Shown here: positions 24,765 to 63,375 of the stretch, in pieces
Numbering within the stretch: the first letter of the stretch is position 1
How the letters are laid out: each line of letters starts with the position of its first letter
Source: a virus
Lineage: Duplodnaviria; Heunggongvirae; Uroviricota; Caudoviricetes
Reading direction: 5' to 3' (one strand)
IMG/VR virus record: IMGVR_UViG_3300010354_007935
Span: 46,284 to 110,283 of that record
Length of the DNA: 64,000 bases
The notes under the pieces: generated by a model
Seen by the model: the letters and a program-made list of their open reading frames with translations, nothing else
Told to the model about the DNA's origin: nothing
The model's database searches: none
Position numbers and translations under genes: made by a program

Positions 24765-26002
24765 TTATAAACCTCCCACAGACCAGGAATGGTTTCGAAA
24801 ATGTCTTCTTTCCTATGTTGATCTAATTTATAGTTGAAATGGAAGAATTCTTTCATACCTTCTTTGTTTTCTTGTCCAGATTGAAGAGTATTCATTACTG
24901 CTTTATATGCATATCGTTGAGTATCAGAATAAGAATAATCGTTGCGAACAGGTTCGTATAATTCTAGTAACTGTTTTTTATAAAACTCTGGAGCTATTAA
25001 TATTGATGCATACCATGGATTGGTCAGTAAGTTTAGTCTTATTTCTTGAGTTTTAGAAAGTAACCCTTTTTCAATCCAGTCTTTGTGAAATTCAGGAAAC
25101 TGATGAACGTTCCATAATGAAATAGTCGGTGTTAATTCGAATAAAACATGCGGCACTTCTTTTTTAATCATTAGTGCATTTAATTCTATATCGTCCCATA
25201 CGGTTCCTTTGCGTACATACTCTGCTAATGGTCCGCTAGCATCTAAACTTGCGTATATTGCCACTTTAGGAAATTTTTTCCAATAGTCTAGTACATTTTT
25301 ATCTTTGTATTTGAATACACTAAAGTTGGTAGTGTACGTTATTTGTACATCAGTTTTTCCTTTCTCTAACCAGTAATCTAAAATTCTATAGTGTTCTGGA
25401 GTAATAAGGGCTTCGCCGCCAGCAAAATAGACTTCCTCGACGTCGTCGAGATAAGGTTCTAATTTATTCCAAAAATCGTCGCCCTCATTATTAGTGACTA
25501 CAATCTTATGCAAGCCAAATCTATCTCTTAATGTAACTTCTCCGTGTCTATCTTTGTATTCTTGGGCCCACTGACTACTACAACTTGGTCCGCAACTACG
25601 GCATTTCATATTGCAGATGTTGCTAAACCTAATGTCCATGTATTTTAGTTGAAAATTTTCAATGGTTCCGTCTTCTTTAGTTTCGTTAACAAGGTGCAAG
25701 TATGTGTTACCTCTTACACGGTTCTGACTTTGTCTTAGACTCCAAGTACCAAGCAATTCTACATCGTAACATCGTTGACATACTTCACTAGGCTCGTTAT
25801 TAATCATCCTCAGACGAAGTTTCTTGTACTCATCCGAGTTCATCATTTTGATAATACTTTCGTCTGTAGTATGAGCTACCGGTTTAGATGAATCGGCCAT
25901 ACAGCAAGGAAACACTTTTGTGTCCGGCCATGCATGGAAATGAATCCACGGTAGGATACAAAAATTTTTTGTATAAAAAATATCTTCTTCAATTTTTCTC
26001 AT
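24749..26002 (-). CDS. radical SAM enzyme with unrecognised N-terminal Cys/His domain
   Basis: 417 aa. N-terminal FCILPWIHFHAWPDTKVFPCC, then the core CNMKCRSC (CxxxCxxC) and YFAGGEALITPEHY. Confidence 0.75.
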   Translation of the reverse strand: MRKIEEDIFYTKNFCILPWIHFHAWPDTKVFPCCMADSSKPVAHTTDESIIKMMNSDEYKKLRLRMINNEPSEVCQRCYDVELLGTWSLRQSQNRVRGNTYLHLVNETKEDGTIENFQLKYMDIRFSNICNMKCRSCGPSCSSQWAQEYKDRHGEVTLRDRFGLHKIVVTNNEGDDFWNKLEPYLDDVEEVYFAGGEALITPEHYRILDYWLEKGKTDVQITYTTNFSVFKYKDKNVLDYWKKFPKVAIYASLDASGPLAEYVRKGTVWDDIELNALMIKKEVPHVLFELTPTISLWNVHQFPEFHKDWIEKGLLSKTQEIRLNLLTNPWYASILIAPEFYKKQLLELYEPVRNDYSYSDTQRYAYKAVMNTLQSGQENKEGMKEFFHFNYKLDQHRKEDIFETIPGLWEVYKWAHS

Positions 26003-26003
26003 A

Positions 26004-27224
26004 TTAACTCATCATAGATTTTAATTCAGGAAAAGTCTTTGTAAAATCTTCTCCTCGTATTTCGTCAACTCTTTTTATTTGAGATTGGAATTCCAATTTA
26101 TATTGATCCCATGTATTTTCAGCATTTGCAAATGAAATAGCGTTTTGCAAACTTTGTGTAGAATAATAATACTCTAATTTTAATTTATAAATTAAGTGCT
26201 GCAATTTTACACTACCTAATTTTTTAAGTTCTTCGGGCATTAGTTGAGAAGAAAAATAAGCAGGGTCCATGCAAGGAAATAGTGATATATTATCTTTAGG
26301 TCGATAAAATCCTTTTACCTTCATATAAGAATAGAATTCTGACAAGGTTAAAAAATTAAACACGCTCATAACAGTATTGAATTGATAATCAATAAAGTCA
26401 TACTGAGTAATTTGTTTTAGATTAGTTTCTATGACGCCCCAGTCAGTTCCGTGCCTAATATACTCTGCACGTTCTCCAAAATGATCGATACTAGCCGACA
26501 ATTCAATTTTTTTAAATTGTTTCCAAAGACCAATCAAATCATTGTTTTTAAATTTAAAATTGCTTAGGTTAGAGTTATATCTTAAAATAATATTTGTTTT
26601 ATTTCTTTTTATAAGCTCTTCTAAAATTGTATAATGTTCTTCTGTAATTAATGGTTCGCCACCTGCAAAATATGCAATTTCAATATTATCAATATGCTCG
26701 TCTAACACTTCTTGAAGTAAGGCTCCTTTGTTATCATCTGCATGTATAATGATAGGAAAATCTTTATTATAAATTCTATTTTCAGCGCCCCATGAGCTAC
26801 TAAATGCAGAACCGCATGTTCTGCATTTAAAATTACAGATATTACTAAAACGAATATCGTAATAGTACATTTTGAAATCTTTGAGGCTACCGTCTTCGTT
26901 GGTGTTTTCTAAGACTTCGTCTAAATGATGAATAAATTTTTCATTTGCATACGTCCTAAAACTCCAATTTTGAGTCTTTTCAGTTTTATAACAAAATTTA
27001 CAAGACGGGCTTTCGACACCATTCATCATGTTTAACCGTATTTGTTTATATCCGTCGGCATTTTTTATTACATCCTTCAAGGTACCATTCTTTACAGACC
27101 CAAAAGGAAGTTTACCGTCTGTAGTACAACAAGGTAGAACATTACCTGAAGGTTCTACGTAGGCGTGTATCCAGGGTAATATACAAAAAGTTTTATTATC
27201 AACTACAGATTTTTTAGATTCCAT
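26004..27224 (-). CDS. radical SAM enzyme, paralogue of 24749..26002
   Basis: 406 aa. FCILPWIHAYVEPSGNVLPCC, then CNFKCRTC and YFAGGEPLITEEHY. Confidence 0.75.
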   Translation of the reverse strand: MESKKSVVDNKTFCILPWIHAYVEPSGNVLPCCTTDGKLPFGSVKNGTLKDVIKNADGYKQIRLNMMNGVESPSCKFCYKTEKTQNWSFRTYANEKFIHHLDEVLENTNEDGSLKDFKMYYYDIRFSNICNFKCRTCGSAFSSSWGAENRIYNKDFPIIIHADDNKGALLQEVLDEHIDNIEIAYFAGGEPLITEEHYTILEELIKRNKTNIILRYNSNLSNFKFKNNDLIGLWKQFKKIELSASIDHFGERAEYIRHGTDWGVIETNLKQITQYDFIDYQFNTVMSVFNFLTLSEFYSYMKVKGFYRPKDNISLFPCMDPAYFSSQLMPEELKKLGSVKLQHLIYKLKLEYYYSTQSLQNAISFANAENTWDQYKLEFQSQIKRVDEIRGEDFTKTFPELKSMMS

Positions 27225-28587
27225 TTTGGTATTCTTTACATAAATTATAAAAATTTGCTAACTCAGGAAATGTTTCTAGAAAATTAACATTCCTTCTTCG
27301 ATCGTATTCATTAAACCAATTATAAAAGTCTTTTCGACCCTCTTTTAATTTATCTTCGGAGTAGTGTGTTGTTTCCATATATGTTACAACACGACGAAAC
27401 TTTTCATACTCCATTTCACTAAAATGAAACCCAGACGAATCATTTAAATTATTTTTGATAAATGATAGACAATCGTGCATATAGGGCATAAACTCATCTT
27501 TAGGTAATATGTTCATGTCATATTGTAGAGGTTCTTTTAAATGCGGAGTATCGAAACGAATTCTATGTTTAGACAAATGTTCATACCATCCGTATTGTCC
27601 GCGCCATTCTAAGATTTTTTCTAGTAAACTTTTAAAATTACTAACGGTAAGAATATTAAAAGTAATCATAAAAGTTACAGGATATTTTGTTTTACTAAGG
27701 TATGTATGAAAATTTCTTTCCCACAGATCTATATCTAGTCCTGTACGAATATATTCTGCACGTTTACCCCATGTATCTAGGCTAGTAAACAACTTAAAAG
27801 ATTTTATTTTATTTTCTAATCTTAATTTTTCAACTTTTTCAGCTAATCTTTCTACTAAAATAGTCTTTACACCTAAGTTACTGTTGAGATTTAACTCTAA
27901 ATTGGGCAAAGGATTCTTATCTAGGTCCTCAAGCAACCGCCAGGTGCTGCGTTGTAGCAAAGGCTCACCACCGGTTATACGCAAGATGTTTAGAGTTTTA
28001 CTGACTTCAGGCCACCATTTCCACCATGCCTCTACATAAGGGTTAGTTTCTTCCTCATAGGTAGTAAACCAATCAATGTCGTTGCGATGATGTTTGACCA
28101 TAGTATAAGGACCAAAGTCTCTTATTTCTTTATGATAAGCACTACTATGTTTAGGATGGCAGTAACCGCATTTAAAATTGCACTCGCTACCAAAACTAAC
28201 TTCAATGTATTCGGGATTTATATTAAAGTCCCAATTGTTCTTTTGTATTTCTTCTATTCTTTCGGGTCTGTAAATACTGGCATTACGTTCGTGCCGATCA
28301 CTAATATAGTCAGGACCAAGTGCCTCTATGTTCCAGCAATACTGACAACCACTGGGTTGATCGCCATCTAACATGGCAGCACGTTGTAGCTTCTTTTCCT
28401 GTGTATTGTGTAATGCACTAGGATTGTCTTTTAATTCGTGTAAAGGAATCTTATGAGGTGCTGGATGATAACAACTATGTGTTTCTCCAGTTTGTAGGTA
28501 TATTGTTGTATGATGCCATTTTGCAAGGCAAAACGTAGGACTAATTTTATTAGTAATGTCCTGTATTTGAATAATTCTATCTTTCAA
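27214..28587 (-). CDS. radical SAM enzyme, distant paralogue with the same N-terminal domain type
   Basis: 457 aa. FCLAKWHHTTIYLQTGETHSCYHP, then CNFKCGYC and ILRITGGEPLL. Confidence 0.7.
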   Translation of the reverse strand: MKDRIIQIQDITNKISPTFCLAKWHHTTIYLQTGETHSCYHPAPHKIPLHELKDNPSALHNTQEKKLQRAAMLDGDQPSGCQYCWNIEALGPDYISDRHERNASIYRPERIEEIQKNNWDFNINPEYIEVSFGSECNFKCGYCHPKHSSAYHKEIRDFGPYTMVKHHRNDIDWFTTYEEETNPYVEAWWKWWPEVSKTLNILRITGGEPLLQRSTWRLLEDLDKNPLPNLELNLNSNLGVKTILVERLAEKVEKLRLENKIKSFKLFTSLDTWGKRAEYIRTGLDIDLWERNFHTYLSKTKYPVTFMITFNILTVSNFKSLLEKILEWRGQYGWYEHLSKHRIRFDTPHLKEPLQYDMNILPKDEFMPYMHDCLSFIKNNLNDSSGFHFSEMEYEKFRRVVTYMETTHYSEDKLKEGRKDFYNWFNEYDRRRNVNFLETFPELANFYNLCKEYQNGI

Positions 28588-30244: not shown

Positions 30245-30999
30245 TATTTTTTCCAGTTAAAAGGACATTTACTTTTTTCTTCTTGTTTATCGATTATTTG
30301 TTTTTGCACTTTGTATTTGTTTAAAAAAGATGTAGGTATTAACCTTTCTCGCATATTAAAGTATTCTTCATTGTTTACTTTGTGCAAGTGAATTTTTAAT
30401 TTTCTTTCTGAAACAGGAACTATATTAACTAATGGTGTTCCTTGCTTAATAAACAATGGTTGTCCAGGGTTGCTAAAATGTAAAAACAAATTAATATCTG
30501 TGTTTGTATTGTATTTGTAATTCAGTGATGCTGGAGGAATAACAATTTCGTGAGGGTTATGAAACGCCCAAGTATTTCCAATCCAACTAAACTGAATATC
30601 TTCTTTACAACTAATAAGCCACGGTGAGTGTAATTTTAAATGAATAAAATCTTTTTGGTCAAGATATCCAGACATTTGTCTGAAATCGTGACTCATTGCA
30701 CCGCTTACACTATCGCTATATTGCCAATTAAATGTTCCGTTGTTTCTATCAACTCCAACTAACAAATCAGACCACATTGGAATCGTCATTCCGTTTTTAT
30801 AAAAATCTAAAAACCCCGCACAACTTTTCATAGTTGGTATCGGGGCCATCGAGCCTTCTTTGTTAAAACTTTTCGGTAGTGATTTCCACCAATCCGGAAA
30901 AAATTTATGGCTATAATCTATAGGGTAAAGGTCATGCACATATTGTCTACTTGTAAAACAATCGACGTGCAGGACCTTCTTTTTAAAAAAAAATAACAT
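30244..30999 (-). CDS. hypothetical protein (251 aa)
   Basis: ORF with ATGA-type coupling. No motif recognised. Confidence 0.35.
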   Translation of the reverse strand: MLFFFKKKVLHVDCFTSRQYVHDLYPIDYSHKFFPDWWKSLPKSFNKEGSMAPIPTMKSCAGFLDFYKNGMTIPMWSDLLVGVDRNNGTFNWQYSDSVSGAMSHDFRQMSGYLDQKDFIHLKLHSPWLISCKEDIQFSWIGNTWAFHNPHEIVIPPASLNYKYNTNTDINLFLHFSNPGQPLFIKQGTPLVNIVPVSERKLKIHLHKVNNEEYFNMRERLIPTSFLNKYKVQKQIIDKQEEKSKCPFNWKK

Positions 31000-31694
31000 T
31001 ACTCTTTCTTTTCACCAAACAACTGTAGCAGGTTCAAGAATAGATTAATAAAGTCCAAATAAAGTGTAAGAGCACCACGAATTTCTGCAATGCCGTCGTT
31101 CTCCATACTGACTTCTTCTCTAATCTGCTGTGTATCGTAGGCAGTAAGTCCGAGGAAAATTAGTATAGCAATAGCACTAATAACCATTTGCATAACTGTA
31201 CTACCAATAAAGATATTTACAATACTAGCAATGATGATAGCAATCAATCCGACAAACAACAAACTACCCAATCCACTAAGATCCTTTTTAGTAAAGTACC
31301 CGTAGCCGCTCATAACACCAAACAGGATTGCACCTCCCATGAAGGCACTGACAATACTGCCCATGTTATAAATGACAAAAATTGTAGCAAAGCTCAAACC
31401 CATTAGTGCGGCAAATCCGTGTAGGCAAAGCTGAGCCATGCTCTTAGTAGGACTCGCATTAAGCAGAATAGTAACACCAAAAATTGCAACTAATGGTGCA
31501 AAAATAACAATCCACTTCATAATTCCTGTAAAGAAAAACGCCATAAGACTGGCATTTGTTCCTACAAGGAAACTTACAATCATACTGGTCAATACTGCTA
31601 GAGCCATATGTCCATAAACACGGCCCATTGCGCTGTTGATTTCGCTAGCAGAGCGATAACTAACAGTATTATCCATGTAACTAGTTCCAAACAT
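30999..31694 (-). CDS. Bax inhibitor-1 / YccA (TMBIM) family membrane protein
   Basis: 231 aa, 7 predicted TM helices. C-terminal LTLYLDFINLFLNLLQLFG matches the conserved BI-1/YccA LYLDFINLF block. Confidence 0.75.
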   Translation of the reverse strand: MFGTSYMDNTVSYRSASEINSAMGRVYGHMALAVLTSMIVSFLVGTNASLMAFFFTGIMKWIVIFAPLVAIFGVTILLNASPTKSMAQLCLHGFAALMGLSFATIFVIYNMGSIVSAFMGGAILFGVMSGYGYFTKKDLSGLGSLLFVGLIAIIIASIVNIFIGSTVMQMVISAIAILIFLGLTAYDTQQIREEVSMENDGIAEIRGALTLYLDFINLFLNLLQLFGEKKE

Positions 31695-31697
31695 ATT

Positions 31698-32069
31698 TTA
31701 CTCCTTGTTTAAAAATGGTTTCAAATTAGGCGGTGTCCAGCCTTCGGGCTTGAGAACTTTACCATCTTCACGCTTACGAACTTTGCCTGTAACAGAATCA
31801 ATCTTAGCAAAGTTAGTACGCATTACTTCGTTCCAAGCACCTTCACCGTCGGCGCCCATGCTATTTATTGCACCAATAGTTACCACTAAAATATCTATTA
31901 GAGCATCTAATTGTTCAACAGGATCGTTAGCTAAGTAGGCTTCGTTAAGTTCTGTAAATTCTTCTGCGATTAAATCGTAGTAAAGTTTGTATTGTGCGCT
32001 ATTATTTTCGCATACAGTTTGATCGCAAGCGACCATAAATTTAGTTTGATCTGCAAACGGATTAGTCAT
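31698..32069 (-). CDS. MazG-like nucleoside triphosphate pyrophosphohydrolase domain protein
   Basis: 123 aa. LIAEEFTELNEAYL...LDALIDILVVTIG resembles the EExxE/ExxD helix pair of MazG/HisE-type NTP-PPases. Confidence 0.45.
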   Translation of the reverse strand: MTNPFADQTKFMVACDQTVCENNSAQYKLYYDLIAEEFTELNEAYLANDPVEQLDALIDILVVTIGAINSMGADGEGAWNEVMRTNFAKIDSVTGKVRKREDGKVLKPEGWTPPNLKPFLNKE

Positions 32070-34669: not shown

Positions 34670-35260
34670 TTATGGGCGTTTTTCCACAATCTCGTCAATC
34701 AACCCATATTCTAGGGCTTCTTGTGCGCTCATGAACTTATCACGTTCCATATCTACACTAAATTGGGCAAAAGTTTTACCCTTACTATTGTGCTTGACAT
34801 AGATTTCTGTCAAAGATTTCTTCATTTTTAGAATTTCTTCGACTTGAATCTGCATGTCTGTAGCCTGTCCACGAGCACCGCCCGAGGGCTGGTGAATCAT
34901 GTGTCTTGCGTTTGGGAGCATTTTTCGCTTGCCTGGAGCTCCTGCTGTGGCAAGGAGACTGCCCATACTGCAAGCCTGGCCCATAACAATGGTGCTAACA
35001 TCGGGTTTGATAAACTGCATAGTATCGTAGATTGCCATTCCCTCAGTAACGACTCCGCCTGGACTGTTGATAAAGAAGTGTATGTCTTCATTTCCTTGAC
35101 TCTCCAAAAATAGTAGCTGTGCTACAATAAGGCTAGCACTATGTTCGTTAACATCTGTATCTAGCATAACAATTCTATCCTTGAGCAAACGACTATAAAT
35201 GTCGTAACTGCGTTCTCCGCGTCCTTCTTGCTCAATAACCATTGGTACCAAATTAGGCAT
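34670..35260 (-). CDS. clpP: ATP-dependent Clp protease proteolytic subunit ClpP
   Basis: [23 protein letters not shown]...GQACSMGS (Ser)...MIHQP (His). The track ORF extends to 35311, but the ClpP-like N-terminus begins at the Met at 35260. Confidence 0.9.
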
Positions 35261-35435
35261 CTTTCTCTCCAAAAATATACGCATCCATTTTGCGCTTAGT
35301 TGTTTCTTCATCCTTCATAGCACAATCAAAACAGATATTCTCATCGTTTGGCCCATAAGGTCTGCACTCGTCTACAACACCACACATTTCACATACTTCG
35401 TCTGGTTGTTGTGCAATAAATCCAGGTCCACTCAT
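35253..35435 (-). CDS. small zinc-ribbon protein (60 aa)
   Basis: [10 protein letters not shown]...CFDCAMKDE (two CxxC pairs). Confidence 0.35.
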
Positions 35436-36235
35436 TAGCGACCGCCGATGTTGCCTAGAGCAGTCATATTGCTAGGAACAATAATAGTGTTGACTTTACC
35501 ATTCTTAATACCTTCGGAGATATTAAGTTCAGCTTGGGCTCGCATGTAAGCAATAGCGGCTGAGTTTTGATTAGCTAGAGCAGCCATACGACGAGCTTCT
35601 GCTTCGGCAGTTTTCACTTCAACTTCCTTTTGTTTGAGTTCGTTTTTACTACGAACCAATTCGTTAGCACTAGCGACAACTGAGTCAGCAGGTACGATGT
35701 TACGAATCAGTACTTGGCCGATAACCAAACTGCCGTCTAGCTTTTCTTCTGCTAGAGTCTTTTGGATCTGCTCCTTGATGCTTTGTTCCATAGTCTGACG
35801 ATTATCTGCCATATCCAATGCTTCGTACTTACGTGCTTCTTTGTAGATAGCATTACGAGCAGTTTGAGTGATGTAATTGTACATCAAATAAATGTCGCCG
35901 TTATGTTTGGCATGAAATGCTTGACTTTTGGTGCTATACAACTCTGCAACTTGTGCTTGATTGATGTTATAGATAACCACAGCATCAAAGTCTTTCATTG
36001 TGCTATTATCTTTAGCAACAGGAGTCATGTCATCAAGTTTGACGTTAACATCCTTGATAGGAAAAGTAAGAACGTCGCCAATCAAAACTTGGTTGAAGGA
36101 TCCGGGCAGAAGCTCGCCACTTTGGACCTGCTTGTCAAAACCAACACGTACACCAACCTCACCGGTTTCGATACGGGTACAGCCAGTAGCGAGAACAGCG
36201 GCGGCGATTAAAGAAAGAGTTGCGATACGTTTCAT
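35435..36235 (-). CDS. SPFH/band-7 (HflC/prohibitin-like) lipoprotein
   Basis: The likely start is MKRIATLSLIAAAVLATGC (lipobox), with a GGAG SD upstream. SPFH-domain pattern (GEVGV...VKLDDMTP...) and an Ala/Glu-rich coiled-coil C-terminus. Confidence 0.65.
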   Translation of the reverse strand: MKRIATLSLIAAAVLATGCTRIETGEVGVRVGFDKQVQSGELLPGSFNQVLIGDVLTFPIKDVNVKLDDMTPVAKDNSTMKDFDAVVIYNINQAQVAELYSTKSQAFHAKHNGDIYLMYNYITQTARNAIYKEARKYEALDMADNRQTMEQSIKEQIQKTLAEEKLDGSLVIGQVLIRNIVPADSVVASANELVRSKNELKQKEVEVKTAEAEARRMAALANQNSAAIAYMRAQAELNISEGIKNGKVNTIIVPSNMTALGNIGGR

Positions 36236-36329
36236 TACATTACTCCAATTGAAAAAAGATAAACTGCCAAAACAAAGCCTAGTGCGGTATACGCAAGGCG
36301 CCCCAAAATTGCTAAAACCATTTTGATTC

Positions 36330-36507
36330 CTTAAAAAATTACAACAATAGCAATTAATGTTGCCAGAGTTAGTATAGCACAACCTAGGCTGTACGTCAAG
36401 AGTTTAGACATGGACCACAGTTCTTTTCCAGTCATTTCTCTCACAGCACGAATACCAAAAAAGAACAATCCAAATACCACAATAAATGCCAAAACTAATC
36501 TAATCAT
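36330..36507 (-). CDS. small hydrophobic membrane peptide (58 aa)
   Basis: Manual translation MIRLVLAFIVVFGLFFFGIRAVREMTGKELWSMSKLLTYSLGCAILTLATLIAIVVIF. ATGA overlap with the upstream gene. A second ~28-aa hydrophobic ORF follows at ~36236..36320. Confidence 0.3.
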
Positions 36508-41361: not shown

Positions 41362-42210
41362 TTAAATCTCCAATACAATGTTAGGGTTCCAACCTGTTTC
41401 TTCGTATCCTTCATAACCACGTGGGTTACAAACAACACGAGTTTCTCCGATCATATAATCAAAGGGATGATGTGTATGACCATGTGTCCATAGTTTGATC
41501 TGAGGGTGATCCAAAATGAATTCGCTTAGATCACTGTGGTACCCGCCATTCATTACCTTGTCGTTGGCATACATTGGGTGTACACTTTGATGACTAGGGC
41601 TATGGTGACCTACAACAACAACCTTACGATCTTTAAGATCAGCAAGCACTGACTTAAAGTAACCTAGTGTTTGTCTGTGTCTTTCCATAATATGCGCCGG
41701 ACGCAGTTTAGTATAGCCATGACCATCATGTCGAATGATACGGAAATCATTCATTAAATCAGTCAAAGCATGCAAGGTCAAAGGATCACCCTTGTTGCAG
41801 TCAGTCCATAGTGTAGCACCGATAAACACAACACCATCAATTTCTTTAGTGTCTCTTTCCAAGAAATGAATGTTAGGAAATTTGCCGCACTCGTTACGCA
41901 GGTCGGTTAGACTAGACACAAACTTACCATGGTAAAATTCGTGATTACCAGCAACATAAACAACATGCGGAAACTGAAAACTGCAACGCTTTAAAAAGTC
42001 ACGGAAGCGAAGTGCAGTAGCTTGTCTACGGCCCAAGTCAGCAAGATTAACATTGCTGTACATGCCGTAGTCCATTTCTGGATGGTCGTGCAGATCCTGG
42101 GCAACCATAATGTCGCCACTGAGAATTAAGACATCGCAACCTTCACCATTCTTGATGTTGATGTCACTAAATTCTAAATGCAGATCTGATACTACCTTAA
42201 TTTTCATCAC
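41362..42210 (-). CDS. calcineurin-like metallophosphoesterase
   Basis: 282 aa. VSDLHLEF, ILSGDI, GNHEFY and the distal GHTH/GHHS blocks. Confidence 0.75.
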   Translation of the reverse strand: MMKIKVVSDLHLEFSDINIKNGEGCDVLILSGDIMVAQDLHDHPEMDYGMYSNVNLADLGRRQATALRFRDFLKRCSFQFPHVVYVAGNHEFYHGKFVSSLTDLRNECGKFPNIHFLERDTKEIDGVVFIGATLWTDCNKGDPLTLHALTDLMNDFRIIRHDGHGYTKLRPAHIMERHRQTLGYFKSVLADLKDRKVVVVGHHSPSHQSVHPMYANDKVMNGGYHSDLSEFILDHPQIKLWTHGHTHHPFDYMIGETRVVCNPRGYEGYEETGWNPNIVLEI

Positions 42211-43909: not shown

Positions 43910-44575
43910 TTACATGAAAATCAAGTCTGTGTCAACCTTTTGGAGCCTAGTATATACTTTTTTAGTTAACCGATTTATTACAGGGTCGTTGTATTTTGGA
44001 AACTCTGTCTTATACATTCCCAAACTAGGAGCAACAAATTGGCCGTTTAACCTAAGCCTGCTCAATTTGTCTGTGTTGTGCAAATAACGTAAGGCTCTAT
44101 GCTTGCCTAAATTTCTGCAAAGTTCAAATGCTATACTGATTGAATAAGCATCTATTTCATCTGGATCACTTAGATACCTTCCGTGATTGTTATCGTGTTC
44201 TCGGCCAGATTTATAATTACGTTTTCGATATTGCCCTTGATGTCGATATTCGTGTATTAACGAATCGTAAATTTGTATTAAAAGTTCTGTAGAATTTTTT
44301 TCATGCCACGCACCAGTTTTATTAAAATTGTGCGTTATTATTAATTCAATAGGACACTCGTTATTTTTATCGTCTTCAGGATCATAAAAACCGTTAACAT
44401 AAAAAACATCTGTGTTGAGATTTTTATCTTTAACGGTCTTTATTTTTAATTCAATTTCATGTAACTTTAATTCTTTACGAATCATAGCTAACAGCTTTTG
44501 GAAACTAACTCCTCCCTGAGTTCTACGTCTTATGCTAGTACATATTTCGCAGACAGTTTCCATTATACCATTCAT
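43910..44575 (-). CDS. HExxH zinc-metalloprotein family protein (paralogue of 33880..34611)
   Basis: 221 aa. SLIHEYRHQGQYRKRNYKS...DPDEIDAYSISIAFEL is colinear with the other copy. Confidence 0.4.
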   Translation of the reverse strand: MNGIMETVCEICTSIRRRTQGGVSFQKLLAMIRKELKLHEIELKIKTVKDKNLNTDVFYVNGFYDPEDDKNNECPIELIITHNFNKTGAWHEKNSTELLIQIYDSLIHEYRHQGQYRKRNYKSGREHDNNHGRYLSDPDEIDAYSISIAFELCRNLGKHRALRYLHNTDKLSRLRLNGQFVAPSLGMYKTEFPKYNDPVINRLTKKVYTRLQKVDTDLIFM

Positions 44576-44577
44576 AG

Positions 44578-44796
44578 TTACAACCTATAAATTACCCTAC
44601 CTTTTGACAAGTCGTATGGGCTGACTTCTACTTTCACATTATCACCTAAGATAATGCGAATCTTGTTTTGCTTTAACCTACCACCCATGTAACAGAGTAA
44701 AGGGTTGGGCATATTGTCCACTTTAACCCTAAACATGTTTCCTGGTAATACTTCGTCTACTTTGCCTGTGAGTTCAATAATATCGTCTTTAGCCAT
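44578..44796 (-). CDS. infA: translation initiation factor IF-1 (S1-like OB fold)
   Basis: 72 aa. ...[54 protein letters not shown] is colinear with bacterial IF-1 (...TMFRVELENGH...[33 protein letters not shown]). Confidence 0.85.
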   Translation of the reverse strand: [72 protein letters not shown]

Positions 44797-44799
44797 TAT

Positions 44800-44964
44800 T
44801 TCTTTTCTAGAATGATTGATCCTTCTTCAACTGTAACCGTAATTACATCGCCTTCTTTCCAGCCTAGCTTGTCACGAATTTCTTGGGGGATATTCATGAG
44901 GACGTTTTCAGGGTCCCCGTTGATTTCTTCAAAAATTTCGCTTGCATCGTAAGTGTACTTTTCC
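44800..44964 (-). CDS. small protein (53 aa), possible swapped-hairpin (AbrB/MazE-like) fold
   Basis: Manual translation MEKYTYDASEIFEEINGDPENVLMNIPQEIRDKLGWKEGDVITVTVEEGSIIL. Not in the ORF track. Confidence 0.25.
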
Positions 44965-44985
44965 ATAGCAGTATTTACTCTTAAT

Positions 44986-45534
44986 TTAATTTGTGTCAGA
45001 ATCTTTTACAACTAGCCAACCTAGTTTATATAAATCGTTTTCGATTTCTTCAGTAACTACACTTTCTGCAACGTAGTCTCTTCCGTCCCAAAGTTTATTT
45101 TCTTCCTCGTCGTGACTAACATTTCGAATACCAGAACAGTACCAATCAATGTAATCACCTTTTTGTTGCATGTGAGCAATAATACCTCCAGCATAGCGCC
45201 AAGAGCATGACCATTTTTGGTCTTTTAGCAAAGGCCACATTTCTCGTTTGATAAAATCATTATTACACATTGCGGCATACAAGTTTTGAGCATAAGCATC
45301 GTTGGCACGAACCTTTTCTAAAATCCAATCGGTGGTACGCAGATCCCATTCTAGGTTATCTTTTCGCCATTTAGGGTCTGCTTCCTGGGCATCTTCTCGC
45401 TCATCCCAAGACTCGTAGTACTCAACCATGGCGCGAGTATTTTCGTCGTTCTCGGGAGTCTTGCCTTTTTCAGCTTGACGTTTGAGATAGTTTTCCTTTT
45501 GGAAAGTATTACGCTGAGGGCTTTTGCTAATCAT
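44986..45534 (-). CDS. hypothetical protein (182 aa, Trp-rich)
   Basis: ORF only. Confidence 0.3.
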   Translation of the reverse strand: MISKSPQRNTFQKENYLKRQAEKGKTPENDENTRAMVEYYESWDEREDAQEADPKWRKDNLEWDLRTTDWILEKVRANDAYAQNLYAAMCNNDFIKREMWPLLKDQKWSCSWRYAGGIIAHMQQKGDYIDWYCSGIRNVSHDEEENKLWDGRDYVAESVVTEEIENDLYKLGWLVVKDSDTN

Positions 45535-45844
45535 GATAGTTACCTTGCAAGCAATGTAGCATTTCGTGACCTAGATTGTCAATAGTGAACTTTTTCGGAA
45601 TAATTATAGTGCAAGTGTTAGCTTCCCAAAACGAGCAGGCTTGCATGGCGAATCCAAATCCATTTCGTCCTCGTTTACGGCTTTCAGTTTCACAGACTTT
45701 GTCAACATTATCGACAGCCCGAATCGTAACAGTTGTTTTATTTGTGAAGTTGTTTTTGGCATCGTACTTAAAATTAGGATTTTGCCAATCGGCGAGAACA
45801 TTAGTCGAAACCAAAATGGTTGTCAAAACAAGTGCCTTAATCAT
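45527..45844 (-). CDS. small secreted protein with HExxH motif
   Basis: MIKALVLTTILVSTNVLA signal peptide. C-terminal NLGHEMLHCLQG. Preceded by the conserved 5'-UTR motif CACACAGAGGCACAA. Confidence 0.4.
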   Translation of the reverse strand: MIKALVLTTILVSTNVLADWQNPNFKYDAKNNFTNKTTVTIRAVDNVDKVCETESRKRGRNGFGFAMQACSFWEANTCTIIIPKKFTIDNLGHEMLHCLQGNYHD

Positions 45845-45870
45845 TTGTGCCTCTGTGTGTAGTTAATCGG

Positions 45871-45966
45871 TGCAGACGGTAGGATTCGAACCTACAAAGG
45901 CAGCTAATAGCCTAGCCCTGTTCCCTCCCCGAAGGGAGGAGGTCTACCAATTCCACTCACGTCTAC
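45871..45966 (-). tRNA. tRNA-like element (class-II-like, atypical core)
   Basis: rc gives GTAGACG...GGAATTGGTAGA...GTAGG-TTCGAAT-CCTAC-CGTCTGC-A. This forms a 7-bp acceptor stem, a canonical T-arm (GGTTCGAATCC) and a Leu/Tyr-type D-loop. The central 45 nt contain a perfect 6-bp hairpin with a UUCG loop and do not fold into a canonical anticodon arm. Confidence 0.45.
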
Positions 45967-46011
45967 GGTTATATTATAACAGCATTTGAACAAAAAGTCA
46001 ATCTGTTTTGG

Positions 46012-46522: not shown

Positions 46523-48001
46523 ATGGAAGTCATATTATTAACATCAGTTTTGCCCTATCGTCTAGATGACAAAAATGTACAAGGAAGATCCTTGTACAGG
46601 GGTATGGGTGCCTATCAAGTAGCTTGGTATTTGCGAGAACACAATTATAACGTTCAAGTTATCGACTTTGTTTTCCAACGATCCGAAGCAGAGGTTGTTG
46701 ACGCTGTTAGCAGATATGTAACAGACGAAACAAAAGTAATTGGATTTGGGGTATTGGGGAACACAGTATATGATAGGCTACTATATCTTAGAGTCGCTAG
46801 CTTAATGTTTAAGCTCAAGGAAAAATTTCCTCGATTAAAATATGTTGGTGGCGGCCCAACTGCCAATCGTTTTGATTGGTTTTTGCCTCCGAAGTTGTTT
46901 GATCATATTATTGTAGGGCATGCCGAAGACACTATGCTTGCCTACTGTAATCATGTATTTAGAAACGGGCCTGCTGTTCCTTTTGAAATTAGTGCTCGCG
47001 GGAATAGACTTATCAAAGAATCGTTCTCAGTTCCAGTTGAAAAAAAATTTGATATACAGCATGATCGACATAGGTGGCACGAACGCGACTTTGTACAACC
47101 CGGCGAATCTTTACCAATTGAAACTACACGCGGCTGTATCTTTAAATGTAAGTTTTGTCAGTATCCGTTAATTGGAAAGCATAAGCTAGATTTTCTTCGA
47201 GATATGGAACTAATTAAAGAAGAAATGATAGATAATTATAATAAGTTTGGAACTACAAACTATTACATGTTAGACGATACTTTTAATGCCGACAAAGATC
47301 GTGTCGAAGCTTTTGCTAACATGGCTGCTAGTTTGCCTTTTAAAATAAGATACGCAACATATCTTAGATTAGATCTAATAGAAGCTCACAGACAAACAGA
47401 AGATATGCTTAAAGAGAGCGGTCTATTTGGTGCATTTTTTGGTGTAGAAACTTTTAATAAGGAAGCTGCGTCTCTCATCGGAAAATCTTTTAGTGGAAAA
47501 AAAGCTAAAGACTACCTTCCAGAGCTAGCCCATCAAAAATGGAATAGTGAGATCATTATCTTCTGCGGAATGATAGCAGGCATTCCTCCAGAGACAGTCG
47601 AAGAACTTTGGGAAACAAATCAATGGTTAAAGGATAACAATATCAATGGGTGGCATTGGAACGGTTTACATTTAAGTAATCACCACATCAAAGAATGGTC
47701 CAGCGAATTTGAACAAAATGCAGAGCAATACGGATTTAGATTTACAGGCCCTGATCAATGGGCACACGGCGAATATCATACATCGCAGAAAGCTCGTCAG
47801 TGGGCGCTGGACTTAGTTAAAGATTCTATTTCTCATCAACGTACTGCTTCATGGAACGGAATTGAATTGTTAAATTATCCTTCTATGACCACGCATGAAA
47901 TCTTAACTCGCCGAGTTAAAGACTATAATTTAGATCATCCTGTGCATGCTGACAGGAAAAAATTCCTAGATAATTATTGGTATCAAATTATGAATTCTTA
48001 A
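46523..48001 (+). CDS. B12-binding (class B) radical SAM enzyme
   Basis: 492 aa. N-terminal Rossmann-like B12-binding region (...VIGFGVLGNTV...), then ETTRGCIFKCKFCQYP (CxxxCxxC). Only plus-strand enzyme gene at the island edge. Confidence 0.7.
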   Translation: MEVILLTSVLPYRLDDKNVQGRSLYRGMGAYQVAWYLREHNYNVQVIDFVFQRSEAEVVDAVSRYVTDETKVIGFGVLGNTVYDRLLYLRVASLMFKLKEKFPRLKYVGGGPTANRFDWFLPPKLFDHIIVGHAEDTMLAYCNHVFRNGPAVPFEISARGNRLIKESFSVPVEKKFDIQHDRHRWHERDFVQPGESLPIETTRGCIFKCKFCQYPLIGKHKLDFLRDMELIKEEMIDNYNKFGTTNYYMLDDTFNADKDRVEAFANMAASLPFKIRYATYLRLDLIEAHRQTEDMLKESGLFGAFFGVETFNKEAASLIGKSFSGKKAKDYLPELAHQKWNSEIIIFCGMIAGIPPETVEELWETNQWLKDNNINGWHWNGLHLSNHHIKEWSSEFEQNAEQYGFRFTGPDQWAHGEYHTSQKARQWALDLVKDSISHQRTASWNGIELLNYPSMTTHEILTRRVKDYNLDHPVHADRKKFLDNYWYQIMNS

Positions 48002-49253
48002 GATCACCTATACTTGTAAGTATAGTTGGTGCGTCTAGAAGATCTTGGTCTAAATCATACACCGGTTGGAAATTAACTACAGGACCAAGTTTATAGTATT
48101 TCCTCCAAGATTTAAAACCAAGTAATCCTTTTACTGGGTCGTAATCTAAAAATTTCTTATCTAGAGATCCAACTAGATTTTCCAAGTCTGATACCATCAT
48201 TTCCCATATCTTAGTACCGGAGTGATGGCGATAGAACCAGTCGTCGTGTCTGCCTAGTAACATTCTGTCAGGCTTGCCTGCTTGATAACTCCATTTCTTG
48301 ATTGCTGGATAGATAGCAGGGACAATGCCTCTTTCATAAACACCTGCATTAAATGTAACAGAATCGACTCTAGGCAATGCTGTTGGTGTATCAGGTCTTT
48401 TAAGCCTGTCATCGTTGATCAGCATCATGTCGTAAACATTCCTATTTTCTGGCCGCATTAAAAATCTGGCTGCTAAATGTGCCTGTTTGACTATCATTAA
48501 GGGAAGTTCAGGACTATGATAAAAAAATATTTGATCCGTGTTTGGATGATTTATTGAATTATACTTGTTATTATAAATGTTATCTCTAAACATAATATAA
48601 AAATGATCTTTAGATCTAACAATTGAGGGTTTATCAATACCTTGAACAACCGCAATCCTTTTTCCAGACTCTGCAATACGTTTTAAATGTGTAAGGCGAT
48701 CTAAATTATAACGGCCAGCCATAGTTGGGTGTAACCAGTCGTTACATTTAAGTAACCAATCGTCTGCTTTATAATTCAGCATGTCCTGAAAGTAATCATG
48801 TAATGTAACTTTGATTTTAGGATATTTTTCTCGTATTGTATTAAGCCACGGAATCTGAGTTAAGAAAGTTTCTTCTATAGTGTTTTCAACTCTCGTATCC
48901 GACGGATCAGGATTCTTCCAATCTCGTAATCCTTCTAACGGAGCACTTCCAACTACTTCATCTATGTGCAACCCGTTATTTACAAAAGCGTGAAACATGT
49001 TTGTACTGTCAGCGCCGCCACTACAGAACATTACAATATAATCGTATTTTTCTCTTATCTGTCTAGCTCGTATAGCATAAAATTCATCTATGCTAGTTGT
49101 CGGCTCTTGTGTCCAGTCTATTGCTGAAAAGATATTATCATTGAAAACCCACTCCATATCTGTTCGTAGTTGCTGGGCTTTAAACATGGCCATAATTTTA
49201 TTATGAAATTTTTCTGTACCAACTTTATAATACCCTAAATCGTCTAAGTTCAT
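47988..49253 (-). CDS. PP-loop ATP pyrophosphatase family protein (AsnB-C-terminal / amidotransferase-like), paralogue 1
   Basis: 421 aa. YIVMFCSGGADSTNMFHAF (SGGxDS PP-loop). Confidence 0.55.
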   Translation of the reverse strand: MNLDDLGYYKVGTEKFHNKIMAMFKAQQLRTDMEWVFNDNIFSAIDWTQEPTTSIDEFYAIRARQIREKYDYIVMFCSGGADSTNMFHAFVNNGLHIDEVVGSAPLEGLRDWKNPDPSDTRVENTIEETFLTQIPWLNTIREKYPKIKVTLHDYFQDMLNYKADDWLLKCNDWLHPTMAGRYNLDRLTHLKRIAESGKRIAVVQGIDKPSIVRSKDHFYIMFRDNIYNNKYNSINHPNTDQIFFYHSPELPLMIVKQAHLAARFLMRPENRNVYDMMLINDDRLKRPDTPTALPRVDSVTFNAGVYERGIVPAIYPAIKKWSYQAGKPDRMLLGRHDDWFYRHHSGTKIWEMMVSDLENLVGSLDKKFLDYDPVKGLLGFKSWRKYYKLGPVVNFQPVYDLDQDLLDAPTILTSIGDLKNS

Positions 49254-50584
49254 TCTAAGTATCCTATATCCCTTCTATAGGTAAATTGACCTACATATTG
49301 TGTATCTAAGTAATCATAAATTCGTTTCGCTGCTTCCTGTCTTGAATTAGCTGTAGTTGTAAACAACGAATGTTTAATATAATATCTTTCAATGCCCATT
49401 GTTGCTCCAGCACATGTTTCAATACTTTGAATTATATTATCAGGTATGTTTTCAAACTTTGGTAGAAATGATGCAGGCCTGAGCCAGTCGTAAACACGAT
49501 TAAACACTCGTACAGAAACTGTAGACTTATTATTATGGATTACATCGGGGATCGGAAGATCTGCACTTGCCGCATAAAATAATTCAGATAAGTTATTTTC
49601 AACAGAGCCTAAAATTGAGCATAATTCAGGGTCACCACTTCGAGTATTAATTTCTAAAATATACGGAACATTATTCTTGTCAACAGCTATGCCTAAAAAT
49701 ATAAATCCCCGATAAAAGTCGTTTGATTTGCCGAGGTAGTCTTTTAAAAAATTAAAAATTTTATCGGCATATTCGTGTACTATCGGATCAGGATCGACGT
49801 TGTAACAACCAAGCCCAACAGTATTATACCCGCTGTCGCCGTCTTTTAATTTTTTATAATCTCTTGCAGAACCTAAATATTTCCAGCCGCTACGATTAAA
49901 CAATGCATGATAAGAGTACTCTCGTTTAATTTCCATGTATTCTTCTAGTACAATTTCTGTATCAAGATTTATGTTTGTAAGTTGTGCGTCACCGTTAACT
50001 AAGTACCCAAATAGTTCTTCAAAAACTGTTTCGTAATTGTCGTCGTCGACAATAATTGTTTGTCTGCCTGACTGATATACAAAATCCAACTTTACTACAA
50101 ATGGTCGTGCAAGACTTTTAAAATTTTTATAAAGATATCGCCCGTCCATTTTTTGATATTTTGGTGTTGGAATACCACATTTAGCAAGAAGTTGTTTGGT
50201 TAGATGTTTACTTCTTTCTAAATCTGTAATTTTTGGATTAACAAAAAAATAAGGTATTTTTCTATCTTGCAAATAATTGTGTATAAATGAACTTCGAGGA
50301 ACTGGGAGCCCGGACGCTAAAACAAAGTCGATTTTTTTATCTTCTGAAAATTCAGCAAATCGTTTCATGGCATTACCTACATTGAGATCGTAAGGTAACC
50401 ATGTAGTTATAGGTTCGTAGTTTTCAGTTGCCTTTACTCCAACAGCAGCTCCAAAATGATAAACGTGTGAATCCTTTTTTAGTAGCTGTGCTAAATGGTG
50501 GTAAGGGCACACCGATGACAATATAGCAATATTCATTTTTGAATTAATTTTATTACCCAGAATGTTGGATCTAATTCCCACCAA
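49250..50584 (-). CDS. ATP-grasp ligase, PurD (GAR synthetase)-like
   Basis: 444 aa. ERSKHLTKQLLAKCGIPTPKY (cf. PurD EGSKAFTKDFL...IPTAEY) and ILEINTRSGDPE (cf. PurD EFNxRFGDPE). Confidence 0.65.
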   Translation of the reverse strand: MVGIRSNILGNKINSKMNIAILSSVCPYHHLAQLLKKDSHVYHFGAAVGVKATENYEPITTWLPYDLNVGNAMKRFAEFSEDKKIDFVLASGLPVPRSSFIHNYLQDRKIPYFFVNPKITDLERSKHLTKQLLAKCGIPTPKYQKMDGRYLYKNFKSLARPFVVKLDFVYQSGRQTIIVDDDNYETVFEELFGYLVNGDAQLTNINLDTEIVLEEYMEIKREYSYHALFNRSGWKYLGSARDYKKLKDGDSGYNTVGLGCYNVDPDPIVHEYADKIFNFLKDYLGKSNDFYRGFIFLGIAVDKNNVPYILEINTRSGDPELCSILGSVENNLSELFYAASADLPIPDVIHNNKSTVSVRVFNRVYDWLRPASFLPKFENIPDNIIQSIETCAGATMGIERYYIKHSLFTTTANSRQEAAKRIYDYLDTQYVGQFTYRRDIGYLE

Positions 50585-51321
50585 TGACGACCGCCGTAAT
50601 TGGGATTTTTAGGGTCTCCATGATGATTGTTGTGCCAGCATTCTCCTTGTGTTAAAGGAAACAACCAAGGTATATTTGTACTATCGTCCTTTGTTGCGTA
50701 GTTTTTATATCCAAGATTTGGATAATGTACTACACTAGTCTGCAAACAAAATACATGTAATGTAATTAGCGCAGGCAACACTAGTAGGTAAAAGAAAAGA
50801 TCGATACTAATTAGTGCAGTGATTCCGTAAACTAACCAAATTATTTCTGTGTAGTATTTGTGAGAGAATACTACATCAGGATCTCTTAATAATTCTGGAA
50901 CTCTCCTGACACTTACATCGCCTTCTTTTAAAGTAAACATCCACGTAATATAACTGTGCCAAAATCCGTGCTTCGGACTATGGGGGTCCAAATCTGTGTC
51001 ACTGTGACGATGGTGTGCTCCTCTATGTATTCCTACCCACAAAATAGCACTTCCTTGTACTGCAATCGTTCCGCAGAACAGTATAAATCTTTTCATCAGT
51101 CTGCTAACTTCAAAACCATGATGGCTAAACAGTCTGTGGAATCCTGCCCCTATTCCAATAAACTTCATAAAGAACCAACCAATAAGAGTAGCTATCCACC
51201 ACCAGGCAGGTGCTGTGCCGGCGATTAAATTATAAATTGCCCAAATACCAAAAATATGTAGAGGTACGATTCCTCCCCATAGATGTTTAATTGTTATGAT
51301 ATTTTTAATTACTTGGTTCAT
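50533..51321 (-). CDS. membrane fatty-acid (acyl-lipid delta-9-type) desaturase
   Basis: 262 aa. Three His boxes: HRLFSHH, HRGAHHRHSD, WHNNHHGDP. Multiple TM helices. Confidence 0.8.
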   Translation of the reverse strand: MNQVIKNIITIKHLWGGIVPLHIFGIWAIYNLIAGTAPAWWWIATLIGWFFMKFIGIGAGFHRLFSHHGFEVSRLMKRFILFCGTIAVQGSAILWVGIHRGAHHRHSDTDLDPHSPKHGFWHSYITWMFTLKEGDVSVRRVPELLRDPDVVFSHKYYTEIIWLVYGITALISIDLFFYLLVLPALITLHVFCLQTSVVHYPNLGYKNYATKDDSTNIPWLFPLTQGECWHNNHHGDPKNPNYGGRHWWELDPTFWVIKLIQK

Positions 51322-62454: not shown

Positions 62455-63375
62455 GTGTTAGATAAATATCTGATGACAACATCTATAATTAATTTCTATT
62501 ACGAACAAGAGCCAAAAAATTGTTCTTTCTACAGCGTATTTGTTGATATTACGCACAGATGTAACATGGAGTGCGCTAACTGCTACACACCAAATAGAGA
62601 TGTTCCAGACCTAGACCTTGATAAATTTTATCACGCACTTGCTCAGTTTCCTAAGAAAACAGAAATACGATTAATCGGTGGCGAGCCTACTGTACGTACC
62701 GATTTGATAGATATTGTAGCAAAGATTAAAGAATTAGGGCATCGCCCAACGATGATGACTAATGGGCTCATGCTAGCTCGACCCGGGTATGCAAGATCAT
62801 TAGTAGATGCAGGAATGCGTAGTATCTATATTAGTCTCAACGGTGCGGATGATGACGATGTGTACGAAGTAATGGACGGTGTTAGATGTGCAGATCGTAA
62901 GCTACTAGGATGGCAAGAATGCGTTAAAGCTAAAATGAATGTTAATGTTGGTGCTATTCTACAAAAAGGAGTTAACGACCATATTCCTGGAAGGCTTTTA
63001 GAACTATCTAACCAATATGGTGGGAACTCTATTATACGTTTCCGAAATGTAGGACAAGTTGGTCGTTATAGTTTAGAAAAAGATCAGAACTGGACATTTG
63101 GACAAATGGTGGGATTAGTATGCGATCAATTTAATAAAGATCCGTCATGGGCTGTGAAATGGAATCGCATCAATGGTTGTGATGAAAAAAATGTTATTTT
63201 CTTCCCTATGGATGAAACTAAGCGCATGAAAACCACTTGGGTAAAAATTACTGATTGGAGTCCCGCTTCAAGTAACTTCCCCGATCCTGGAAACAATCGT
63301 CGTGGTCGATTAACACAAGATTTTAAAGTTGCGCCGTTCTTTGAACATGTAAAGATATACGAAAATGTATATTAA
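62455..63375 (+). CDS. radical SAM enzyme
   Basis: 306 aa. DITHRCNMECANCYTP (CxxxCxxC), IRLIGGEPT, MMTNGLML. The start may be the ATG at 62473 rather than the GTG at 62455. Confidence 0.65.
   Translation: MLDKYLMTTSIINFYYEQEPKNCSFYSVFVDITHRCNMECANCYTPNRDVPDLDLDKFYHALAQFPKKTEIRLIGGEPTVRTDLIDIVAKIKELGHRPTMMTNGLMLARPGYARSLVDAGMRSIYISLNGADDDDVYEVMDGVRCADRKLLGWQECVKAKMNVNVGAILQKGVNDHIPGRLLELSNQYGGNSIIRFRNVGQVGRYSLEKDQNWTFGQMVGLVCDQFNKDPSWAVKWNRINGCDEKNVIFFPMDETKRMKTTWVKITDWSPASSNFPDPGNNRRGRLTQDFKVAPFFEHVKIYENVY

Follow-up and report, generated by a model that had tools for sequence, protein, structure and literature searches.

The 64,000-nucleotide stretch of DNA analysed here (hereafter the window; positions 46,284 to 110,283 of the IMG/VR virus record IMGVR_UViG_3300010354_007935, Caudoviricetes) carries a gene whose product is, to judge from its sequence, a near-certain and strongly diverged member of the bacterial translation initiation factor IF-1 (InfA) family. 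The gene belongs to a lineage of phage origin that is isolated from bacterial IF-1s, held under purifying selection and embedded in a conserved gene order, which also includes a structured RNA. We propose, with a probability that we put at about 0.65, that its product is a working, phage-adapted IF-1 that binds the 30S subunit of the host and sustains or biases initiation during infection.

Results

The open reading frame (ORF) lies on the minus strand at 44578..44796, with its ATG at 44796 and its stop codon, included in the span, at 44578-44580. It encodes 72 amino acids (aa), exactly as an earlier reading of the letters without database searches (the sequence-only reading) had it, and it is the single IF-1-like sequence in the 64-kb window. 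That reading had also taken the product to be colinear with bacterial InfA and to be a phage-encoded IF-1, and both points were borne out. Indeed, the protein scores above the curated cut-off of TIGR00008, the NCBIfam equivalog model for infA (88.9 bits versus 61.15, over model positions 1-69 of 69), and above that of PF01176, the Pfam eIF-1a/IF-1 family (68.4 bits versus 30.2, over positions 1-64 of 64). Moreover, it aligned with all 12 distinct IF-1 sequences of the PDB, with E-values from 5.6e-20 to 1.8e-13. These alignments show 49-54% identity to the solved bacterial proteins, cover residues 1-71 or 1-72 for most matches and contain one insertion of a single residue. Scores above curated cut-offs, together with a full-length match to solved IF-1s, place the similarity far beyond chance. 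A generic cold-shock or S1 protein, which the sequence-only reading had named as the finding that would speak against IF-1, is not what we observed. In the Pfam/NCBIfam scan of the ORF, CSD (PF00313) and S1 (PF00575) were absent at E <= 0.01, the families above threshold were IF-1 models only, and the RsgA_N match found besides PF01176 was sub-threshold (16.9 bits versus 27). From the roughly 50% identity to solved structures, we infer that the protein adopts the five-stranded OB fold.

The surroundings of the gene are those of a phage. Small ORFs follow one another closely in the window, almost all in one direction and with no bacterial housekeeping neighbours, and the largest landmark is a tail-fibre-like ORF of 3607 aa (4373..15196, minus strand) that matches several tail-fibre and virion-protein PHROGs along its length. 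The window also encodes a virion structural protein, a PA5oct-like conserved protein, a DNA ligase and a UvdE endonuclease, and it holds many host-like auxiliary genes. A megablast search with the 10 kb around IF-1 against 50,697 phage records returned zero matches, and there was thus no annotation to borrow. In metagenomes we found the exact protein and hundreds of close relatives, which form 823 clusters at 90% identity; the top 120 clusters are all 82-100% identical, and their contigs reach 387 kb. Matching synteny was found on 203 related IMG/VR viral contigs, and the gene order around IF-1 is identical on NCBI, JGI, ENA and Logan contigs of 13-368 kb. This IF-1 clade is therefore carried by a large group of uncultured jumbo phages.

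The sequence-only reading had called virus-encoded IF-1 uncommon, which is right in one respect and too strong in another. Matches to IF-1 were found by tblastn in 36 of the 50,697 phage records, at least one of the 36 being mislabelled bacterial DNA, so that some of these matches are not phage genes. On the other hand, IF1 of huge phages has already been published, and the present clade comprises more than 800 protein clusters. The mislabelled record, CAKLQH020000005.1 ('Acinetobacter phage MD-2021a'), has infA beside leuBCD, truA, ansA and the gene of a GadX-like regulator, and looks like bacterial chromosomal DNA filed as phage.

How far has this IF-1 moved away from its bacterial counterparts? 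We compared 149 unique IF-1s of the clade with 74 bacterial IF-1s and with five other phage IF-1s (from Lak, Phosso, two huge-phage genomes and Bacteroides phage SJC03). The bacterial sequences are the matches listed in a genome scan, and hence a partial sample biased towards sequences resembling the phage protein. Mean identity is 86.5% inside the clade and 68.9% between the bacterial matches listed, whereas clade and bacteria share 48.9% on average and at most 60.6% among those matches; the closest bacterial IF-1 listed is about 54% identical to the window protein. In a HMMER search of 1.84 billion cluster representatives, just two sequences reached 71-74%, all others remaining at or below 59%; these two bear the clade signature and are outlying members of the clade. 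Neighbour-joining recovered the clade as monophyletic in 98 of 100 bootstraps, its internal branch being the longest in the sampled tree (0.288 versus a median of 0.022). The choice that the sequence-only reading had put to phylogeny, host-derived or divergent, thus falls on a divergent, isolated clade. The phage IF-1s as a whole grouped together in 0 of 100 bootstraps and every other sampled phage IF-1 resembles bacterial IF-1s more closely than it does this clade, from which it follows that phage IF-1 genes arose several times.

Selection within the clade has been strong. Synonymous divergence is saturated (mean pS, the proportion of synonymous differences, 0.71), while the mean proportion of nonsynonymous differences (pN) is 0.069, and the median ratio of nonsynonymous to synonymous substitution rates (dN/dS) is 0.04. 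Over 87 loci, IF-1 has a mean identity of 88.6%, whereas most of its neighbours have 46-57% and a metallophosphatase has 69.5%; IF-1 is the best-conserved gene of its neighbourhood. A tight and isolated clade, strong conservation and a low dN/dS argue for an old, constrained phage gene rather than a recent host capture. An attempt to infer the host from IF-1 failed: the best bacterial matches listed (46-55%) span Proteobacteria, Firmicutes, Cyanobacteria, CPR bacteria and others.

The residues through which IF-1 touches the ribosome have been described for the C. difficile and T. thermophilus proteins. K39 and M42 contact the 530 loop, R41 and R46 contact the flipped A1492/A1493, the loop between strands 1 and 2 occupies helix 44's minor groove, and H35, Y60, R64 and R66 face protein S12 (PMC10913371). 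In addition, 30S binding requires the C-terminal Arg (PMC4611024). In the phage clade, the equivalents are K/R40 (for K39), K42 (R41), R47 (R46), Y36 (H35), Y61 (Y60), K65 (R/K64), R67 (R66) and R71 (R70), and each of them is 97-100% conserved among the 149 clade sequences. Contact positions are thus kept or conservatively replaced and the basic surface facing the 30S subunit is not lost; the deviations are a Q43 at the equivalent of M/K42 and a G at N19 of the helix-44 loop. This conservation suggests that the ribosome-binding surface has been retained, and it is the ground on which we propose that the protein would bind the A site of the host 30S subunit.

Immediately upstream of IF-1, at 44796..44966 on the minus strand, lies the gene of a small acidic protein of 56 aa with the AbrB/SpoVT-MazE fold. 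It matches PF04014 (37.3 bits versus a cut-off of 24.7) and TIGR01439 (39.9 versus 28.3), and the profile of its family matches SpoVT/AbrB structures. The sequence-only reading had placed IF-1 among unknown genes; this holds insofar as other flanking genes could not be annotated, but not for this immediate neighbour. In the window, its stop codon overlaps the IF-1 start by 1 nucleotide (nt) in the sequence TAATG, and all 86 of 86 related loci with enough upstream DNA have a homologous ORF that overlaps the IF-1 start, by 1, 4 or 8 nt. An AbrB-like neighbour is absent from all 80 bacterial infA loci examined, and was not found at five other phage IF-1 loci (Phosso, Lak-C1, LR756511, LR756508 and SJC03). 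The overlap suggests that the two proteins are co-produced in fixed proportion, and the genes are probably translationally coupled.

The charges of the two products are opposite, as the AbrB-like proteins carry a net charge of -5 to -10 (mean -8.5) and IF-1 one of +2.4. The AbrB-like protein is a bare domain devoid of the C-terminal toxin-binding tail. In addition, when it is set against AbrB, SpoVT and MazE as references, the positions aligned to R8, R15, R23 and R24 of AbrB, its DNA-binding arginines, are not conserved as basic. Because these arginines are missing, the protein appears more likely to be a co-translated protein/RNA-mimic partner or a regulator of IF-1 than a repressor.

The IF-1 unit opens with a tRNA-like RNA without an anticodon loop (45868..45966, minus strand), which was defined from an alignment of 45 variants, from covariation and from its linkage to IF-1. 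The variants are 96-119 nt long and comprise a 7-bp acceptor stem, a D arm with GG, a long variable arm and a perfect T arm (GGTTCGAATCC). At the predicted 3' end, 43 of the 45 have a discriminator A followed by an encoded CCA; the window copy has CCG. The pairing is well supported: 98.1% of the alignment cells are paired versus 42-54% in slid controls, and compensatory changes occur at 13 pairs versus 0-3 in these controls. The anticodon arm is replaced by a hairpin with a closing UCCUCC/GGAGGG stem. In the window, this hairpin consists of a 6-7 bp stem with a UUCG cap; in relatives, the rod is 13-25 nt longer, often with an AGUA/GAA internal loop and with variable tetraloops, the hairpin measuring 18-40 nt. 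A canonical 5-bp anticodon stem with a 7-nt anticodon loop was not found in the variants aligned, and the anticodons called by ARAGORN differ between near-identical copies (Arg-TCG in the window, Pro-GGG in relatives). Rfam gave nothing at gathering score for this RNA, the scores being 30.3 versus 47 for tRNA-Sec and 23.1 versus 29 for tRNA (RF00005). As to transfer-messenger RNA (tmRNA), ARAGORN reported none, the Rfam tmRNA families were absent even at E <= 1, and a tag-like reading frame was not found.

The stem that stands in the place of the anticodon stem (45925..45942, minus strand; columns 27-33 and 58-63 of the alignment) keeps its sequence as well as its pairing. ACCUCCUCC, the 5' strand, is similar to the anti-Shine-Dalgarno end of 16S rRNA, and GGAGGG, the 3' strand, to a Shine-Dalgarno sequence; these likenesses may be coincidental.

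The linkage between this RNA and IF-1 was found from both directions. An independent motif scan of IMG/VR returned 54 loci with at least 1.7 kb of downstream DNA, of which 49 carry IF-1 about 1.2 kb downstream. The remaining five were excluded as chance matches inside unrelated GC-rich coding DNA. All 49 genuine loci therefore carry IF-1, which makes the two strictly linked. Among the 87 loci retrieved with IF-1, the RNA is present in 78, and the rest are mostly without upstream DNA.

A sigma-70-type promoter precedes the RNA (TTGACT-17 nt-TATAAT with the extended -10 TG; 45973..46001, minus strand). With 11 of 12 matches it is the best in the region, and it ends 6 nt before the first base of the RNA. 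In relatives, a 10-12/12 promoter is the best sigma-70 match upstream of IF-1 in 85 of the 85 scanned; for nearly all of the 45 inspected, the distance from it to the conserved G1 of the RNA is likewise 6 nt. Such a promoter indicates neither the host nor an early, host RNA polymerase-dependent timing, since Flavobacterium jumbophages of related size (FTs-1, FKo-1) encode their own sigma factors (PMC13573597).

Promoters of this kind are frequent in the window. Eight TTGACA-17-TATAAT promoters with 11-12 of 12 matches lie on the coding (minus) strand, versus 1.6 +/- 1.2 in shuffles, with their -35 hexamers at 46001, 43935, 39736, 38065, 33891, 32405, 22216 and 19450. These near-consensus promoters are mostly located in short gaps just upstream of genes, and they occupy 7 of the 21 intergenic gaps. 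Enrichment of the Bacteroidota-type TAnnTTTG promoter motif was not found in the window. The Shine-Dalgarno signal is weak (22% of crude gene starts versus 8% background), with an enrichment of G at -11 to -8.

Three other proteins are encoded around IF-1. The first ORF of the unit (45527..45844, minus strand; present in 78 of 87 loci) encodes 105 aa with an N-terminal hydrophobic, signal-peptide-like segment and a C-terminal HEMLHCLQGNYH motif (HEMLH), and ends in HEMLHCLQGNYHD right before the stop. The motif is metzincin-like with its spacing off by one residue, and family searches with this protein gave zero matches. Next comes a conserved protein of 182 aa (44986..45534, minus strand), which 86 of 87 loci carry at a constant distance upstream of IF-1 and which lies within the transcription unit; zero family or PDB sequence matches were obtained for it. 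Downstream, a conserved 221-aa protein with a putative HExxH site (HEYRH; 43910..44575, minus strand) starts 2 nt after the IF-1 stop and is kept alongside IF-1 in 72 of 74 loci. Its H108-E109-x-x-H112...Q115 and D137-P-x-E140-x-D142-A-Y144 motifs are invariant. The predicted structure is confident (predicted local distance difference test score, pLDDT, 91.4), fold relatives were not found in the PDB, and a PDB sequence search gave nothing meaningful. The sequence-only reading had described an HExxH paralogue beside IF-1, a relationship that we had to reject. Between the HEYRH and HEMLH ORFs, BLASTP gave an E-value of 0.079 over 33 aligned residues, and the two flanking genes are therefore not demonstrable paralogues. 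Finally, the PADLOC defence and anti-defence models gave zero matches for eight proteins of the locus, IF-1 and the AbrB-like protein included.

Discussion

Surveys of huge phages list initiation factors, which may be either recent host pick-ups or adapted viral genes. For the present clade, the age and isolation of IF-1, its rank as the most conserved gene locally and its fixed operon argue for an adapted viral function over gene dosage. In the mechanism that we favour, the protein would fold as an IF-1 OB barrel, long resident in the jumbo-phage clade, and would bind the A site of the host 30S subunit at helix 44, the 530 loop and protein S12. Together with the IF2 and IF3 of the host, it would stimulate and proof-read the formation of the 30S initiation complex, and would thereby maintain or bias the initiation capacity available to the mRNAs of the phage during the shut-down of host gene expression. 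The unit from which it is read would be a dedicated one, composed in order of the sigma-70-type promoter, the tRNA-like RNA, two ORFs of unknown function, the AbrB-fold gene, IF-1 and the HExxH protein, and the stop/start overlap would set the proportion of AbrB-fold protein to IF-1. That a phage IF-1 implies direct remodelling of host translation initiation, as the sequence-only reading put it, can reasonably be argued.

Several observations nevertheless weigh against this view. End to end, the phage protein is colinear with bacterial IF-1 (e.g. 1AH9, 1HR0, 6C00), likewise a 72-aa protein with a single S1-like OB domain, and it keeps the basic 30S-contact residues and the C-terminal Arg. However, at several positions where conservation among the sampled bacterial IF-1s is 85-95%, the clade is fixed to other residues. 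In the helix-44 loop, N19G is fixed. The inserted residue and the replacement of G29/H30 turn ENGH into D/E-N-M-P-N, the clade signature. A34C, S37G, R41K and K42Q, as well as H35Y, are fixed in the contact helix, and the terminal basic residue (Lys/Arg) is lost. The activity of the phage protein could thus be altered, and not merely supplied. Since the rRNA targets are universally conserved, these substitutions more plausibly tune affinity, release or cooperation with IF2 and IF3 than change the target. Bacterial infA has no such obligatory partners as the acidic AbrB-fold protein and the tRNA-like RNA, whose presence may indicate a function other than the plain supply of an initiation factor. 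Structure prediction gave no help, as the AlphaFold2 model, built from a clade-only alignment (30 sequences, 82-94% identical), has five strands and a pLDDT of 61.8, and a Foldseek search of the PDB with this poor model returned noise; both were discarded as evidence either way.

The fixed substitutions and the unusual partner could also be read as signs of a mimic that shuts the host off. Such a protein would bind the A site and then release poorly or cooperate wrongly, its acidic AbrB/MazE-fold neighbour neutralising or timing it. The arrangement indeed resembles that of type II toxin-antitoxin operons (MazEF, VapBC with AbrB-type VapB, Doc partners), in which an AbrB/MazE-fold ORF comes first and overlaps by its stop the start of the second. 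Here too, the first product is strongly acidic and the second small and basic. The substitutions fixed in the clade are grouped in the helix and loops that contact the ribosome, the ENGH loop has lost its His, and a peptide derived from IF-1 has been reported to inhibit bacterial growth (PMC10913371). However, the second protein scores as an IF-1 equivalog and not as a MazF/PemK, PIN or Doc toxin or any other toxin family, and PADLOC recognises neither protein. The AbrB-like protein lacks both the toxin-binding tail and the arginines that autoregulatory DNA binding would call for. Moreover, in this lytic-looking jumbo-phage clade the pair is a fixed part of the syntenic core rather than a patchy mobile module, and the basic 30S-contact residues are kept as in working IF-1s. 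We consider this explanation unlikely.

Another explanation, also unlikely, would unite all three conserved elements in one phage-specific module, expressed from the one conserved promoter and acting at the decoding centre, namely an anticodon-less, aminoacylatable, class-II-like tRNA mimic, the acidic AbrB-fold protein co-translated with IF-1 and the diverged IF-1. If so, the module could, as tmRNA-SmpB does, bring in an amino acid or fill the A site without any decoding; or else it could switch initiation to phage messages, and the neighbouring HExxH protein would possibly inactivate a host factor. A general RNA chaperone or cold-adaptation protein is a less probable candidate. RNA-chaperone and cold-shock roles have been reported for E. 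coli IF1, and an OB protein of this kind could act chiefly on RNA rather than as a stoichiometric initiation factor, melting RNA structures, antiterminating or aiding translation in cold water, in an operon which also carries a structured RNA. Against this stand the missing CSD and S1 matches and the IF-1 models as the sole families above threshold, and the fact that the most strictly conserved residues are the ribosome contacts of IF-1. It is still harder to picture IF-1 and the RNA by themselves as a pair entering the A site, in which a small OB protein at the decoding centre would assist an aminoacylatable RNA lacking an anticodon, by analogy with SmpB and the tRNA-like domain of tmRNA. The acceptor stem and T arm, the A73-CCA of 43 of the 45 variants, the missing anticodon loop, the strong covariation, the linkage in both retrievals (49 of 49 and 78 of 87 loci) and the single conserved promoter that drives RNA and IF-1 all fit such a pair. 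Nevertheless, the linkage may reflect no more than a tRNA-derived 5' processing or stability element, as phage tRNA genes often lie inside mRNA operons. The tag-like reading frame, the ARAGORN tmRNA and the Rfam tmRNA family were all looked for and not found, and one would expect the rod that takes the place of the anticodon arm to collide with IF-1 in the A site. Lastly, the gene might not be a phage gene at all, the window being host DNA (a bacterial contig, a prophage flank or a chimera) or having picked up a host infA as a recent passenger, and the Acinetobacter record mentioned above reminds us that some 'phage' IF-1s are bacterial DNA. Here the ORF array, the 3607-aa tail-fibre-like gene, the virion PHROGs and the lack of housekeeping neighbours point the other way, as do a gene order recurring on hundreds of viral contigs and an identity of at most 60.6% to the bacterial IF-1s among the matches listed versus 86.5% inside the clade. 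There are no intermediates among 1.84 billion representatives and dN/dS is 0.04 while synonymous divergence is saturated, so that contamination by host DNA and a recent capture are both essentially excluded.

Phage IF-1 is already known as a kind. IF1 genes were found in huge phages of many ecosystems and read as a means to intercept and redirect host translation (PMC7162821). IF1 has also been reported in soil huge phages (PMC11748809), and in gut Jug phages it is a core gene present in single copy (PMC12880540). IF3 is mentioned in a comparison of jumbo phages (PMC7824862), and the isolated freshwater Flavobacterium jumbophage FTs-1, of about 390 kb, encodes 'a translation initiation factor' of unnamed type (PMC13573597). 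The present protein resembles the described huge- and jumbo-phage IF1s, including those of Lak megaphages and Sinorhizobium phage Phosso, in being a small IF-1 homologue of a very large genome with a presumed part in translation takeover. It differs from them in its separate acquisition or lineage, and in having the AbrB-like neighbour that is missing at the five loci checked. It thus represents a new and well-defined lineage, and no functional study of a phage IF-1 was found in the literature searched.

The surroundings of the gene depart further from what is known, the genomic context of bacterial infA being unrelated (AbrB-like neighbour in 0 of 80 loci). The RNA resembles class II (Leu-type) tRNAs in its acceptor stem, T arm, D-loop GG, long variable arm and A73-CCA, and the tRNA-like domain of tmRNA in lacking an anticodon. 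It differs from the latter in having neither an mRNA-like tag region nor the G3:U70 pair, and from canonical tRNA in its rod-like hairpin in place of the 7-nt anticodon loop. An anticodon-less phage tRNA-like RNA was not found described in the literature searched. As far as this literature and Rfam show, neither the AbrB-fold protein conserved beside IF-1 nor the tRNA-like leader without an anticodon has been described, although both are features of the locus more than of the IF-1 claim. Should the gene simply supply IF-1, it would be a solid but ordinary addition to the catalogue of jumbo-phage translation genes. The locus also provides partners that can be tested and shows which substitutions on the surface facing the ribosome are fixed in the clade.

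Other genes of the window

Radical-SAM enzymes are unusually concentrated in the window, at 23784..28587 (minus strand), 46523..48001 (plus) and 62455..63375 (plus), and also at 49250..51321 (minus). Four of them are consecutive, two with SPASM, while a B12-binding radical-SAM protein is encoded on the opposite strand and another enzyme near the end of the window. ATP-grasp (GARS_A-like) and fatty-acid-desaturase-like proteins adjoin these genes, and the cluster points to a pathway of modification or of small molecules.

Genes of stress and proteostasis that look host-like also form a run, all on the minus strand, at 15834..16397, 17054..18073, 18202..19337, 30999..32069, 34670..36382 and 41362..42210. 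It includes an Fe/Mn superoxide dismutase, a UvdE UV endonuclease, a 2-oxoglutarate-Fe(II) oxygenase and a 6-pyruvoyl-tetrahydropterin synthase (QueD-like), and also a Bax-inhibitor/YccA-like membrane protein, a MazG-like pyrophosphohydrolase, a ClpP protease, an SPFH/band-7 protein and a metallophosphatase.

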